Sequence record: PQ341120.1
Source of the DNA: Escherichia phage EAWsc9
Length of the DNA: 64,000 nt
Strand: one strand, 5' to 3'
Under the pieces are notes generated by a model, which did no database searches, was not told where the DNA came from, and was given only the letters and a program-made list of their open reading frames with translations. The position numbers and the translations under genes were made by a program. Positions 26,481 through 63,003 of the stretch are shown piece after piece. The number at the start of each line of letters is the position of its first letter. Position 1 is the first letter of the stretch.

Positions 26481-26506
26481 ATGGAATAATATTCACATTA
26501 TTCCAT
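26481..26506. terminator. Perfect 10-bp AT-rich hairpin (ATGGAATAAT-loop-ATTATTCCAT)
   Basis: Inverted repeat directly after plus-strand ORF stop, between convergent 56 and plus ORF. Confidence 0.4.
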
Positions 26507-26598
26507 CGGATTTGGAAATTAACCAGTAAAAAAGACAAGAAACATCATGGGCTTTTTAGCTCTTGATGTTTTTCTGCGGAACTTACCGGAATTCCTTC

Positions 26599-27627
26599 CT
26601 AAACTTTTGCGTACTTCGAAAGTCGCATTCTCGCCATCAACCCTTGAGCAACGTTATCGGCCATATATGATTCGATTTGTTCAGGGGTTGCGCCCTCCGA
26701 TTTAACCATCTCATTTATGTCTTTCGTATGCCATGGTGCATTGTCCCAGAACATAACGGCTTCACCCGCTTCAACGAGCTTCTTCATACGTTTAATCGTA
26801 TCCGGATGTCTTGGCTCGTTGTCCATTACCCATACTCGGGTTTCAGCATAAGGAACGGCTTCCAATGCTAATGTTCCACCGGTTATCGCAATGCTGTTAG
26901 GGATAAACAAACTATCAATCGGACCTTCCATTACCCACACGCGCTTGCGCTCATCAATCTTGTCTACGCCATAGACTTTGGAAGCTTCTGGGTGAGCTTT
27001 GATTGTGATATATTTTTGTGGTGCATCTTTGCGAAGAGCTCGTCCTTGGAAAGATTCGATTTCTTTTTTGCCGTTGAAGATAGGAATAACCAAGCGTGGT
27101 TCATTCGTTTCATTCTTATACGTCCCAGGATTAACGGAGTTAACTAATGCAGGCCATTTGTTTGTAAACCATAACCGGTTCCAAACATTGCTCGGAATAC
27201 ACCGACTTTTTACATACTTAACTATCGGATGCTCTTCTGGTAAAGTATCGATTCTTTCGCAAAAAGCAAGCTCTTCAATAACCGGAGTTTTTTCTGGTTC
27301 TTTCGGAGCTTCTGCAACTTCATTACGTTGTCGACCGAAAGCATTCTCCTTATACTTCTCAACCATATATTCCCGGTGCAAATCCGGCTCAAACTCTTTT
27401 ATGTATTTGCTTATATGCGTGGAGTAGTCACAGTTAAAACATTTCACGTAAACCGCACCATCAGACGGATTGGTATACGCCCAGAATCGGGCCTTGTGTG
27501 AATCTTTCTGGGAGTCACCACAAACCTTGCAACGACAGTTTGCCTTAAATGTGCTCCCGGTGACTTCTCTATAACGTGGTTGATACGATAAAGCTCTAAC
27601 TGCAAATTCTCTATCAATATATGACAT
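26599..27627 (-). CDS. 61: DNA primase gp61
   Basis: 342 aa; zinc ribbon CRCKVCGDS...CFNCDYS and Toprim-like core; T4 gp61 is 342 aa. Confidence 0.9.
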   Translation of the reverse strand: MSYIDREFAVRALSYQPRYREVTGSTFKANCRCKVCGDSQKDSHKARFWAYTNPSDGAVYVKCFNCDYSTHISKYIKEFEPDLHREYMVEKYKENAFGRQRNEVAEAPKEPEKTPVIEELAFCERIDTLPEEHPIVKYVKSRCIPSNVWNRLWFTNKWPALVNSVNPGTYKNETNEPRLVIPIFNGKKEIESFQGRALRKDAPQKYITIKAHPEASKVYGVDKIDERKRVWVMEGPIDSLFIPNSIAITGGTLALEAVPYAETRVWVMDNEPRHPDTIKRMKKLVEAGEAVMFWDNAPWHTKDINEMVKSEGATPEQIESYMADNVAQGLMARMRLSKYAKV

Positions 27628-40259: not shown

Positions 40260-40451
40260 TTAATCAAAGTATTCATATGCGAACCAGGCATTGTGTCTGT
40301 TCGCGATTATTTTAACATATTCTTCACCGAAAGCGTTTTGCAAGTCACGTTCAGTGACAAGGTGTTCATCTTTCGAAAAGGTATTAACTAACACATACCG
40401 TTTAATTTCAGGGACAGCCAATAAATGCTGCCCGGTTAAGAAGTCAGCCAT
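40260..40451 (-). CDS. Hypothetical protein (63 aa)
   Basis: ORF coupled to next gene. Confidence 0.45.
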   Translation of the reverse strand: MADFLTGQHLLAVPEIKRYVLVNTFSKDEHLVTERDLQNAFGEEYVKIIANRHNAWFAYEYFD

Positions 40452-40486
40452 AATAGCCTCTATTATAACATCCTTGTTTTAAAACA

Positions 40487-42169
40487 TTATTCCATAACAG
40501 TGAATCGACCAACTTTTTTCATCTGGAGATGTTGTCCGTATGCTTCCGGGTCATGGTCTCGGTGACTGATGATAAAGATGTTGGTGTCTTCCAATTTGTT
40601 CAGGATGGTAGCAATTGCTTTAACACCCTCTACATCTGTGGCCGAGTCAAAAACTTCATCCAGAATCAATGTGTTAATATTAACACCAGATACTTTCGCA
40701 GCAATATCGCGCCATGTAAACAGCAATGCAATATCTATACGAGCTTTTTCGCCCTGGCTAAATGATGCATAACTAAAGTCTTCACGTCCACGAGATTTAA
40801 TCGTTTCGTTGAACTCTTCATCTAACGTAAAGCTATAATCAGCTTCCATAACTTTAAGATAAGCATTTATCTGCTTATTAAAGATAGGAATATATTTCTT
40901 AATAATCGCGCCCTTGATACCAGAATCTTTCAACATATCCGTTAGGATACCACGTTGATATTTTTCCATCACAAGGTCGGATTTTTGTTTGACTATTTTA
41001 TCAAGCTGGTCTTGAAGCATTTTAATGTCTGCTGCATGGTCAATAAATTCCGACTTAGCTTGCTCGATTAATGCTTTAACCTTTTTAGCTTTTTCGACAG
41101 TCTGGACTAAGGTTTGTTTCTTAGTTTGAATGTCTTGAGCTATTGTACGCTGGTTTTGTCTTGCCTTGGTATACGCATCAAATTGCTCTTGAACAGCATT
41201 CTGGCGAGCTTTATGCTTATCAGCTGATGCATTACATTCTTCAATCTTTGACTCAATCCTGGCGACAATAGGGTCTCCTGGATGTAACTGACTGGCACAA
41301 GTCTGACAACAACCGCCCTTCTCGTACAGACCAACAACCTTTCGGTAATCGTCAATCTTCGATTTAATCAGGAATGATTCCTGCTTTAACTTTGTGAGTT
41401 CGTGCTCGGGGTCTTCTCCCAAAATTATCTCGGTCAGTCTTGTTGTTGCTTCTTCGATAGTTGCCTTGATTCCACGTGCTTCTGTAGCAAGTTCATCATA
41501 CATCGTTTGCAGTCGCAACAGATTATCACCTGACAATTTTCTTTGACGGTCTTCGTTGTCCTGATAGATTTTAATCTGTTGAACGATACCATCATGCTGC
41601 ACATCCATTACCTGGATTTGGCTATTGACTTCGCGGATAAGAGATTTGTTCAGCTTATCCATATCGGCCAGTACAGAAACCTCTAAAAGGTCTTCGACAA
41701 GCTTTCTTCTGGCAGGAGTGGATAGGCCCATAAAAGGGGTATATCCAGCTGTGCCGAGTACGACAATTTGTTTGAAACTGGCGTATGACATTCCGATAAG
41801 CTGTTCAAATTCCGCTTGGAAGTCTTTACTGCTGGCAGATTCATCAAGACGTTTACCGCCACAAGAGATTTCAAAAACATTGGGTTTTTGCCCGCGTTTG
41901 ATATAGTATTCTTTTCCATCATATTCCATCCACAATTCAACGAGCATATCTTTTTTGTTGCTCGAGTTAATCAACTGGCCTTTCTTTACATCACGGAAAG
42001 GCTTACCGAACATAGCAAAGGTAACCGCTTCAAGGAACGTAGATTTACCCGCGCCATTCTTGCCGGTGACCAGAGTTTTCTGGACTTTATCCAGTTCAAC
42101 AGTAATCGGTTTAGCACCAACCGACATAATATTTTTATAGATAACTTTCTTAAGCTTAAACGTTTTCAT
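40487..42169 (-). CDS. 46: Recombination endonuclease subunit gp46 (Rad50/SbcC-like)
   Basis: 560 aa; Walker A GKNGAGKST, long coiled coil with CxxC hook-like CCQTC, signature SQGEKARIDIAL, Walker B LILDEVFD. Confidence 0.95.
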   Translation of the reverse strand: MKTFKLKKVIYKNIMSVGAKPITVELDKVQKTLVTGKNGAGKSTFLEAVTFAMFGKPFRDVKKGQLINSSNKKDMLVELWMEYDGKEYYIKRGQKPNVFEISCGGKRLDESASSKDFQAEFEQLIGMSYASFKQIVVLGTAGYTPFMGLSTPARRKLVEDLLEVSVLADMDKLNKSLIREVNSQIQVMDVQHDGIVQQIKIYQDNEDRQRKLSGDNLLRLQTMYDELATEARGIKATIEEATTRLTEIILGEDPEHELTKLKQESFLIKSKIDDYRKVVGLYEKGGCCQTCASQLHPGDPIVARIESKIEECNASADKHKARQNAVQEQFDAYTKARQNQRTIAQDIQTKKQTLVQTVEKAKKVKALIEQAKSEFIDHAADIKMLQDQLDKIVKQKSDLVMEKYQRGILTDMLKDSGIKGAIIKKYIPIFNKQINAYLKVMEADYSFTLDEEFNETIKSRGREDFSYASFSQGEKARIDIALLFTWRDIAAKVSGVNINTLILDEVFDSATDVEGVKAIATILNKLEDTNIFIISHRDHDPEAYGQHLQMKKVGRFTVME

Positions 42170-46023: not shown

Positions 46024-46264
46024 TTAAGTAGTCCAGGAATTCGTCTAATGTCATGCCTTCCGCCCAAGCTATTTTAGGGTCAGGCATTTTCATATAAGTG
46101 GTCTTAGAGCTTATAGGAAGTATCCTGAAATCATAATGACTTCCACGTAGCCTCTTAGCCTCTTTTATAATAGTTTCACTATTAACCATCATAGATGTAC
46201 GTTGGAAACCAGATAAAGCTTTAAGGACGATTATGACTGATACACCTTCTGGTAAATTATTCAT
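46016..46264 (-). CDS. Hypothetical protein (82 aa)
   Basis: ORF. Confidence 0.5.
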   Translation of the reverse strand: MNNLPEGVSVIIVLKALSGFQRTSMMVNSETIIKEAKRLRGSHYDFRILPISSKTTYMKMPDPKIAWAEGMTLDEFLDYLND

Positions 46265-46587
46265 TTCGCACCCTTAACAATTTTCAGGTCAACAAAACCT
46301 TTCTTGCGCTGGGACTTCATACGCTTGATAGCTTTATCAGAAACTTCTTTGTTTTCGCGCAGAAGCGGCAGACCAAACGCTACTACATCAAATTCGTTCA
46401 GGATATACTGGACAAGGCTTTCACGAATACGCGCTTTACCCATTGTCTGACCTTCTGCAATAATCAGTTTCTGTACATCGCCTTCCCACTGGTCCAGAAT
46501 CTCAGGGGTAACAAAACCAGATTTCATCAGAGTGTTAACTTTAGCAAATGCGAAATTAGCGATGATGTTAGTGATAGATGCAGTCAT
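46261..46587 (-). CDS. Hypothetical protein (108 aa)
   Basis: SD GAGGAA; promoter-like stem-loop upstream. Confidence 0.5.
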   Translation of the reverse strand: MTASITNIIANFAFAKVNTLMKSGFVTPEILDQWEGDVQKLIIAEGQTMGKARIRESLVQYILNEFDVVAFGLPLLRENKEVSDKAIKRMKSQRKKGFVDLKIVKGAK

Positions 46588-46659
46588 GATATATTCCTCA
46601 GTCTCATTAAATTAAAATTTTATTATCCTGGGGCCATTATACCATGACCCCGTTGATTT

Positions 46660-61636: not shown

Positions 61637-61894
61637 TCATCTCATGCTCCTGTGCCAACAATTTCTTGGTTCACGTTTAAAAATTTCATCATGCATTGAT
61701 TGACAACCAACACAATATATCACACCTTTAATCGCTTGTCTCCGCGCTTCAGGAATTTTTTCGTCGCAGTCAAAACAGAATTCAGCAGACTCCCTTTCAA
61801 CTGCAACTTGTGCTCGTGCGTGAACGATAGCGGCTTGGACAACCGCTTCCATCTCTAACTGTTCAGCACCATCTTTTGCAAATCCAACAGCCAT
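61637..61894 (-). CDS. TraR/DksA-family C4 zinc-finger protein (85 aa)
   Basis: CFDC-x17-CVGC with IPEARRQA between, the TraR/DksA zinc-finger signature. Confidence 0.6.
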   Translation of the reverse strand: MAVGFAKDGAEQLEMEAVVQAAIVHARAQVAVERESAEFCFDCDEKIPEARRQAIKGVIYCVGCQSMHDEIFKREPRNCWHRSMR

Positions 61895-62076
61895 TATTCT
61901 TTCAACTCATTCAGATAAGCAATTAATTCTTCTTTAGAACTATTCAAATCACGCTTGCACTGTTCTATTCCAGAATATGAATAACCTTCACAATATTCAA
62001 CAGCCAGGTCATTGGATGCATTTTCAATGTGCCAGGCGAGTTTGATAATTTTTTCAATCTGTTCAGTAGTTAACAT
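61894..62076 (-). CDS. Hypothetical protein (60 aa)
   Basis: ORF. Confidence 0.45.
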   Translation of the reverse strand: MLTTEQIEKIIKLAWHIENASNDLAVEYCEGYSYSGIEQCKRDLNSSKEELIAYLNELKE

Positions 62077-62080
62077 AATA

Positions 62081-62311
62081 TCACCAGTATTTTTTGATGG
62101 TAGAAATTAATTCTTGGACTTGAGTAGTCTTCAGCTTACACCCACAACCCTTTAAGGTATCTTTAAGGAGCCATGGTTCCTTGAGCTCATCCTTTTCCAG
62201 GCGAATTCTATATCCGCGGTAATCAGCAAATATGCTTCCGTCATCAAATATCTTAATTTCAAGAATATGATTATTGGTTTCATATTCTTGAAACCATGGT
62301 ATTTGTAAGTT
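62081..62311 (-). pseudogene. Start-less 76-codon open frame continuing in-frame after tandem TAA-TGA
   Basis: No ATG/GTG/TTG in frame; ends 4 nt before next gene's ATG; possible pseudogene or recoding site. Confidence 0.25.
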
Positions 62312-62314
62312 TCA

Positions 62315-62521
62315 TTATTCCACCACATATGATAATGAGAAAATTGCTGATGAAAGATGGGTAGCATCTTCTTCACACAGTTCAAATGGAGCTTTCTGTA
62401 AGAGTTCAACCACTTCTTCATCAGTGGCACTGTCCATAAAGATTGCATAATCATTAAGATAGATAACAACCTCATCACCAGTATTAACTGCATCAATCTT
62501 GATATTTTTAATTCTCATCAT
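62315..62521 (-). CDS. Hypothetical protein (68 aa)
   Basis: SD GAGGAGA; terminated by TAA immediately followed by in-frame TGA. Confidence 0.5.
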   Translation of the reverse strand: MMRIKNIKIDAVNTGDEVVIYLNDYAIFMDSATDEEVVELLQKAPFELCEEDATHLSSAIFSLSYVVE

Positions 62522-62589
62522 GTTCTCCTCAGTAGTTGATGGGATAATAGTACACCCTTTTTATGAGGATGTAAACCCCCTAAATGAAA

Positions 62590-62615
62590 AAAGGTCCACC
62601 CGAAGGCAGACCTTT
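62590..62615 (-). terminator. Hairpin + U-run terminator
   Basis: AAAGGTC...GACCTTT stem around CCGAAGG core, followed by UUUUUUCA on minus transcript. Confidence 0.5.
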
Positions 62616-62619
62616 TGAA

Positions 62620-63003
62620 TTACTCTAGTGTTAACAGATACTTAGTCTGAAAGAAAACTCCAACGATATCGTCCAGAGTCGATTGAATAGCCTTAGGTAC
62701 AACTTTATAGACTCTTTCCGAGCTTTTAATCATTTCATCTAAAAACAAAATTGTATCTTTCGGCAAGTCCGAGGCGGACGGTAATGCAGCTTTGTATTGT
62801 TTCCCGCTGTAACCTAACCATTGCTCACTGAACTGGTCGAGTGGACCTTGGATTTCTGTGAAGTAGAAATCATAAGCTTTATGGCGGGCGTAACTTTTGG
62901 TTTCAAGATGGGCAGATTTAAAATAAGCCAAAGAGACTAACAACCACCCAATATATGAATCCACCTCAGACCCACGACCCGTTACGAAATCATCAAATTT
63001 CAT
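62620..63003 (-). CDS. Hypothetical protein (127 aa)
   Basis: ORF downstream of rI. Confidence 0.5.
   Translation of the reverse strand: MKFDDFVTGRGSEVDSYIGWLLVSLAYFKSAHLETKSYARHKAYDFYFTEIQGPLDQFSEQWLGYSGKQYKAALPSASDLPKDTILFLDEMIKSSERVYKVVPKAIQSTLDDIVGVFFQTKYLLTLE

Follow-up and report, generated by a model that had tools for sequence, protein, structure and literature searches.

A two-nucleotide deletion, genuine or a sequence error, behind an apparent tandem stop and start-less open frame downstream of mobD.5 in Escherichia phage EAWsc9

The window analysed here, a stretch of 64,000 nucleotides from Escherichia phage EAWsc9 (PQ341120.1), contains a series of small genes that are arranged, in the order of transcription, as tk, a 91-aa ORF, an rI-like antiholin gene, a mobD.6/7-like gene (DUF5856), mobD.5, a 78-aa ORF, mobD.3 (DUF7438), the gene for a DksA/TraR zinc-finger protein and mobD.1. 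A megablast search with positions 61890-62625 returned 76 phage records, all of them from T4-like Tevenvirinae of the genera Gaprivervirus (SP18, VR7, VR20/25/26 and the TH series) and Dhakavirus (JS98, Bp7), and the top match was Yersinia phage vB_YenM_P8 (P8; 99.5%). Elsewhere, at ~40442-40489 and ~26486-26605, the window is without two insertions of P8 that are annotated as homing endonucleases (ORF156, L004 23493-24209, and ORF181, L004 38117-38884). This difference is a typical presence/absence polymorphism of mobile elements.

The mobD.5 homologue is encoded on the minus strand at 62315..62521 and is 68 aa long when counted from its first ATG, or 67 aa from the second ATG (62518). It matches PHROG 3024 with E = 1.1e-32, residues 7-68 being aligned to positions 1-62 of the 62 positions of the profile, and its homologues in SP18, VR7 and VR26 carry the annotated name MobD.5. 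An exact look-up of the 68-aa product was without a match because gene callers take the second ATG; the 67-aa form is widespread: the index of the contig collection lists the identical protein in 178 blocks, and 24 contigs were read. Two further elements precede the gene on the same strand: a terminator-like hairpin with a 12-bp stem and a subsequent T run, found by consensus scan after the upstream mobD.6/7-like gene (62589..62616), and a promoter-like sequence, TTTACA-17-TACTAT, recognised by consensus match only (62547..62575). The latter is likely to be the early promoter of a unit comprising mobD.5, the 78-aa gene and mobD.3. A separate mobD.5 promoter has been reported for T4 (PMC1702504), and the terminator-like and promoter-like sites before mobD.5 are consistent with it. 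Between the terminator-like hairpin and the -35-like hexamer, at ~62580, the window reads GGGGG and P8 reads GGGG; this position is intergenic.

In a preliminary description of the locus, the 68-aa ORF was regarded as interrupted. The alignment with PHROG 3024, however, extends to the last position of the profile, so that the protein has the terminus of its family. The mobD.5 homologue is complete and uninterrupted, and the broken gene is the next one. Its 3' end reads ...GTG GTG GAA TAA TGA on the minus strand, and the stop codon TAA (62317-62315) is indeed followed directly by an in-frame TGA (62314-62312), as had been described. This second stop is made up of the TG of a start codon and the first A of codon 2: within the hexamer TAATGA (62312..62317, minus strand), TAA is the stop of mobD.5 and the ATG at 62315-62313 is the start of the following gene, and the same junction is present in all relatives. 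The apparent tandem stop is a T4-style stop/start overlap with a subsequent A, and as such a by-product.

The junction is also found in front of another gene. In MT446420.1 (L018 1404-1589), the 78-aa gene is absent and a 61-aa DUF7438 paralogue (mobD.3/mobD.4-like, MITLEQ...) starts at the identical TAATGA. Since the junction is kept although a different gene follows, TAATGA represents a generic stop/start overlap between cassette-like small genes, and the gene slot after mobD.5 behaves like an exchangeable cassette.

Behind the second stop, the frame of mobD.5 stays open for 76 codons (62311..62084, minus strand) that include no ATG, GTG or TTG, and it ends at a TGA (62083-62081). Only four bases (TATT) separate this TGA from the ATG at 62076, at which the intact 60-aa mobD.3 homologue begins (61894..62076, minus strand; DUF7438, Pfam PF24219, E = 6.7e-18, in agreement with annotations). 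The absence of start codons and the four-nucleotide spacing had both been reported correctly. The same description considered a stop-free stretch of this length unlikely to occur by chance, and here length and context have to be separated. When the window was shuffled by mononucleotides 100 times, 49 of the shuffled versions had, in at least one of the six frames, a stop-to-stop stretch of 76 codons or more without a start codon, and the real window itself contains other start-less stretches of 74-136 codons, all of them on the plus strand, which is non-coding in every part examined. The longest of these (46237-46644, plus strand, 136 codons) runs antisense to the minus-strand gene at 46261-46587 and is an antisense open frame, not a gene candidate. 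On the coding strand, the 76-codon stretch is by far the longest, the second in length having 58 codons. As length alone is not significant across the window, the argument rests on homology, and the stretch is non-random by position and homology: it is the longest on the coding strand, fills the gap between two genes exactly and is homologous to a conserved gene.

In P8, this gene is a 237-nt CDS (78 aa); its ATG shares bases with the stop of mobD.5 (TAATG), and its end is the TGA that closes the start-less frame of the window. P8 ORF102, VR7 ORF109c and Bp7 EpBp7_0034 are members of one family (PHROG 10363) of hypothetical proteins of Gaprivervirus and Dhakavirus T4-like phages. The 78-aa CDS is annotated in P8, VR26 and Bp7, it is called from an internal ATG in VR7, and in SP18, JS98 and ECML-359 the ORF is intact yet unannotated. 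Among the ten contigs that carry the identical mobD.5, seven have the CDS called from the overlapping ATG (L010 and VR26 among them), including three metagenome scaffolds. Intact translations are found in P8, SP18, VR7, JS98, Bp7, VR26, ECML-359 and the three metagenome scaffolds, and in every relative examined the ORF has its own ATG and a frame different from that of mobD.5. The copy in the window lies in the slot of the family, upstream of mobD.3, and starts with the ATG of TAATG; in Bp7 and JS98, both Dhakaviruses, the 78-aa gene has the same slot, after mobD.6 and an intergenic region, without mobD.5.

Once two nucleotides are restored to the window copy, the encoded protein matches PHROG 10363 over its full length (E = 3.3e-52, residues 1-78 on profile positions 1-78 of 78). 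A search of 5.8 billion proteins gave 12 full-query homologue clusters, all 12 exactly 78 aa in length and with 82-99% identity, while the 13th match is the truncated 45-aa product of phage TH40. An exhaustive profile search found five representatives only, namely an intact 78-aa member, two fragments due to frameshifts, a distant relative of 80 aa that has the same N-terminus (MKLMTTTVELEYEI) and a weak match, which is a repeat match to an unrelated 285-aa protein. Neither of these searches revealed a fused or longer homologue, none exceeding 80 aa. A single longer ORF, for which a comparison of homologues had been suggested, is therefore missing among them, and two separate genes are found in all relatives that have both. 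By comparison of coding sequences, the 78-aa gene is under strong purifying selection in the relatives: variable sites among eight sequences are distributed over the codon positions as 10/10/39, and pairwise dN/dS ranges from 0.05 to 0.16 between divergent pairs.

The AlphaFold model of the 78-aa protein (pLDDT 84) shows a small alpha/beta fold of four strands followed by three helices, and the deletion described below maps to the first strand of this predicted fold. The protein has no Pfam match, PHROG 10363 is without an assigned function, and the model has no match in the PDB at E <= 0.001. In the viral structure library BFVD, close matches are limited to uncharacterised small proteins, some of them from T4-like phages (PM2, EcS1). 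The product name given to the gene in P8, 'valyl-tRNA synthetase modifier', was rejected, as the names in this record are misplaced and family searches give it no support. The P8 record (PP693301.1) contains many evidently misassigned names: some twelve small ORFs in a row are called 'thioredoxin', for example, and the mobD.1 homologue 'thymidine kinase'. The product names of this record are unfit as functional evidence.

These data also bear on the simplest explanation of the open frame, that the 76 codons are non-coding spacer which happens to be free of stops. The shuffles would be compatible with such an origin, but the full-length homology to a 78-aa protein family, the third-position bias of the substitutions with a dN/dS of about 0.1 and the confidently predicted fold speak against it, so that its probability is close to nil.

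The window copy of the 78-aa gene deviates from its relatives after codon 9. The relatives read ATG AAA CTT ACA AAT ACC ATG GTT TCA TTA/TTG GAA TAT GAA ACC..., and the window reads ...GTT TCA AGA ATA TGA, so that the ATG frame is stopped after 11 codons, the first nine and two shifted ones. According to translation and alignments, the truncated 5' end of the gene (62280..62315, minus strand) encodes MKLTNTMVS and two shifted residues (RI) before the premature TGA at 62282-62280. The difference consists of a private 2-nt deletion (TT) between 62289 and 62288 (62288..62289, minus strand; TCA|TTA GAA in relatives, TCA|AGAA in the window). In DNA alignments with P8, SP18 and VR7 it is seen as a single gap, GGTTTCA--AGAATATG, in otherwise near-identical sequence, and the window-wide comparison with P8 likewise places a 2-nt deletion at about 62288. 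Relative to all homologues, the deletion is an indel that is not a multiple of three and is uncompensated nearby, as in a frameshift pseudogene, and the window copy is a frameshifted allele of PHROG 10363, or an error, in place of an intact ORF.

Downstream of the deletion, the remainder of the gene, codons 11-78 and the stop (62081..62287, minus strand; EYETNNHILEIK...KKYW), is displaced by +1 into the frame of mobD.5. It provides the content of the start-less continuation, is 99% identical to P0001 and would encode peptides such as IFDDGSIFADYR and DELKEPWLLK, whereas the continuation opens with eight sense codons, NLQIPWFQ, that are the 5' end of the 78-aa gene read in a wrong frame. The start-less frame coincides with that of mobD.5 only because the private deletion has shifted the downstream gene. 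A further ORF of 43 codons in a wrong frame (MKPIIIFLKL..., 62152-62283, minus strand) has its ATG (62283-62281) overlapping the premature TGA; in the frameshifted allele, coupling could bring about its translation into a hydrophobic junk peptide. Gene callers took the same wrong frame in the TH40-type frameshift (P0014); this ORF is a by-product and not a gene.

The anatomy of the locus as a whole is almost certainly that of two separate early genes, placed head to tail on the minus strand, of which the second is frameshifted. Translation of the complete mobD.5 homologue would stop at TAA, and the 78-aa gene would normally start at the overlapping ATG (TAATG). As a consequence of the loss of TT after codon 9, ribosomes starting from this ATG would make only MKLTNTMVSRI, and the remaining 68 codons, shifted into the mobD.5 frame, would give the appearance of a tandem stop with a start-less continuation. 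A full-length 78-aa product would not be expected from the frameshifted allele. The deletion itself may have arisen at the tip of a 9-bp palindromic hairpin.

Two hairpins have to be distinguished in this region. The preliminary description placed the stops in the 3' arm of a potential hairpin, and the 7-bp inverted repeat TCATTAT...ATAATGA is present; however, its fold (UCAUUAU/AUAAUGA) is no better than that of shuffled sequences (-4.5 kcal/mol versus -4.18 +/- 1.89, z = -0.17; 78 of 200 dinucleotide shuffles fold at least as well), and it was rejected as a signal. The second hairpin, detected by folding and consensus scan, lies within the CDS of the 78-aa gene (62275..62296, minus strand), begins within the second in-frame AUG (Met7) and has the sequence UGGUUUCA-AGAAUA-UGAAACCA, with 8 bp, -9.1 kcal/mol and z = -3.7. 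Its counterpart in Gapriverviruses (L001 1829-1852) is a perfect 9-bp palindrome, UGGUUUCAU-UAGAAU-AUGAAACCA, with -10.8 kcal/mol and z = -4.3 in P8, and a weaker version is found in Dhakavirus Bp7 (z = -1.9). The deletion has removed the top pair and one loop base from this hairpin. Palindromes and hairpin loops are hot spots for deletions. The CDS hairpin could favour either a deletion during replication or a sequencing artefact.

When an 81-nt query across the deletion site was used, 74 matching phage records were obtained, and all 74 span 2 nt more than the window at this site; the segment is 83 nt long in all 30 close relatives, and the Dhakavirus matches are likewise 2 nt longer in their matched part. 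Exact searches with the 21-nt deletion junction gave no match in IMG/VR, JGI metagenomes or GTDB genomes. Apart from the deletion, the gene in the window differs from that of P8 by one base, at which P8 is the odd one out in the family, and it shows no further damage. By these comparisons, the deletion is private and recent.

A change of this kind may have occurred in the phage or in its sequence record. If it is an error of sequencing or assembly, the phage itself carries TCATTAGAA at 62289/62288 with the 78-aa gene intact, and the TT dropped out during base-calling or when the consensus was built. This explanation has a substantial, though less than even, probability. It would account for a deletion that none of the 74 records shares and that three large collections lack, in a gene that is otherwise undamaged and on which strong purifying selection acts in all relatives; the site is part of a stable local hairpin, which is able to disturb sequencing chemistry, and this group of records contains indel noise in the form of the G-run difference at 62580 and the G-run frameshift of TH40. 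The lost bases, however, do not belong to a homopolymer longer than 2, and common platforms do not typically lose 2 nt outside homopolymers. Further evidence against an error comes from a comparison of the window with ~49 kb of P8, in which every indel was mapped onto the P8 CDS table. Clustered indels inside CDSs always sum to multiples of three, and the other uncompensated indels are intergenic, lie in an A run at a stop codon (~47788) or are found at the edges of alignment blocks, where they adjoin divergent sequence or a small P8 ORF missing from the window. Across these ~49 kb, no CDS has a frame-breaking indel other than the TT deletion; the sequence is therefore not error-ridden.

We lean, with modest confidence, towards a genuine mutation of very recent origin that has inactivated a dispensable accessory gene. 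The strong purifying selection in the relatives renders such a loss slightly unexpected in a natural isolate. Two observations nevertheless point to dispensability, the DUF7438 paralogue that occupies the slot in MT446420 and the independent frameshift in TH40. In TH40 (MT446411.1; L005/L013), an additional G in a G run at codon ~36 leads to a 45-aa product (P0013) and to a 67-aa call from a wrong start (P0014). The TH40 record is marked UNVERIFIED, and its frameshift may itself be an error. If the deletion in the window is real, it would constitute a small piece of evidence that growth on the isolation host does not require the conserved 78-aa accessory gene, which fits the different gene in the slot of MT446420.

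Three options had been put forward for the locus in the preliminary description, of which a recently inactivated gene and a sequencing error remain and programmed recoding does not, given the unique arrangement and the lack of a fused homologue. Recoding could take three forms: (a) readthrough of TAA-TGA, by which mobD.5 would be extended, (b) a bypass similar to that in T4 gene 60, from GAA at 62320-62318 to the next in-frame GAA at 62287-62285, or (c) a +1 ribosomal frameshift in codons 1-11 that would rescue the 78-aa gene, for example at the rare AGA AUA before UGA. It is compatible with the undamaged downstream frame, with the stop that follows a would-be take-off codon and with the matching GAA 30 nt downstream in a stable hairpin loop. 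AGA and AUA are rare codons in E. coli, and the run UCA-AGA-AUA-UGA is located in the loop and 3' arm of the hairpin 62296-62275. GAA, in contrast, is a very common codon, and a match between take-off and landing codons is trivially expected for this reason. The arrangement is confined to this sequence among the 74 records, IMG/VR, JGI metagenomes and GTDB, and therefore no recoding signal can have been selected. In addition, the in-frame ATG of the downstream ORF in every relative, its separate frame, its occurrence in Dhakaviruses without mobD.5 and the lack of any fused or longer homologue argue against recoding in general. Each form also meets objections of its own: two stops in succession make the context anything but leaky, the stop hairpin required for a bypass folds no better than shuffles (z = -0.17), and, by inspection, none of UCA-AGA, AGA-AUA and AUA-UGA lets the P-site tRNA re-pair in +1, nor is there a prfB-like CUU-U or an SD-like stimulator at the right spacing. 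All variants taken together, programmed recoding is highly improbable.

A related scenario assumes that the deletion is real and that a functional protein is nevertheless made, either by a +1 shift at a low level at UCA-AGA-AUA-UGA or by a hop from the GAA-TAA of mobD.5 to the GAA of the hairpin loop, which would fuse mobD.5 to the body of the 78-aa protein. This is very doubtful, and if it were true, the shift or hop would be a newly born recoding event and not an evolved one. As an alternative start in the shifted frame, ATA at 62302-62300 was the sole near-cognate candidate noted by inspection; it lies 17 nt from the only SD-like sequence, GGTGGA, and was discarded.

Programmed readthrough, bypass or frameshifting is thus not supported, and the feature is an ordinary frameshift or a sequence error, already explained by known biology. 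The locus should be annotated as mobD.5 followed by a frameshifted (pseudo)gene of the VR7 ORF109c / PHROG 10363 family and not as a recoding site. More generally, a T4-style TAATGA overlap in combination with a downstream frameshift can give the impression of a tandem stop with a start-less ORF behind it.

A comparison with known systems agrees with this assignment. As in T4 gene 60, the window has a sense codon followed by a stop and an identical codon (GAA) downstream, but it is without a significant take-off hairpin and its gap measures 30 nt instead of 50 nt. A bypass of this type presupposes two parts that are conserved as one protein; here, they are separate genes everywhere, with no fused homologue, the split is not conserved and the downstream part has its own start in all relatives as an independent gene, which stands alone in Dhakaviruses. 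Stop-codon readthrough is characterised by a single leaky stop and a downstream frame in phase, whereas the locus shows TAA TGA and a downstream gene that is in another frame in all relatives, and codons 1-11 contain, by inspection, no codon that would permit the +1 re-pairing of a prfB-like frameshift. In contrast, the TAATGA between mobD.5 and the next gene is exactly like the T4-type stop/start overlaps (TAATG, ATGA) that are associated with translational coupling of small early genes, and no difference from them is apparent. The downstream gene shares with the PHROG 10363 family its position after mobD.5 or mobD.6 and before mobD.3, the start at TAATG and, once repaired, 99% identity; it differs in that a 2-nt deletion found in no other sequence interrupts its ORF after codon 9. 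Parallels to this break are ordinary frameshift pseudogenes or indel errors of non-essential T4-type accessory genes, such as the TH40 copy of the same gene. Both copies show an indel that is not a multiple of three, a premature stop, an intact downstream frame and a private distribution, while TH40 has gained one G in a G run at codon 36 and in the window two bases (TT) are missing at codon 10, from the tip of a palindromic hairpin.
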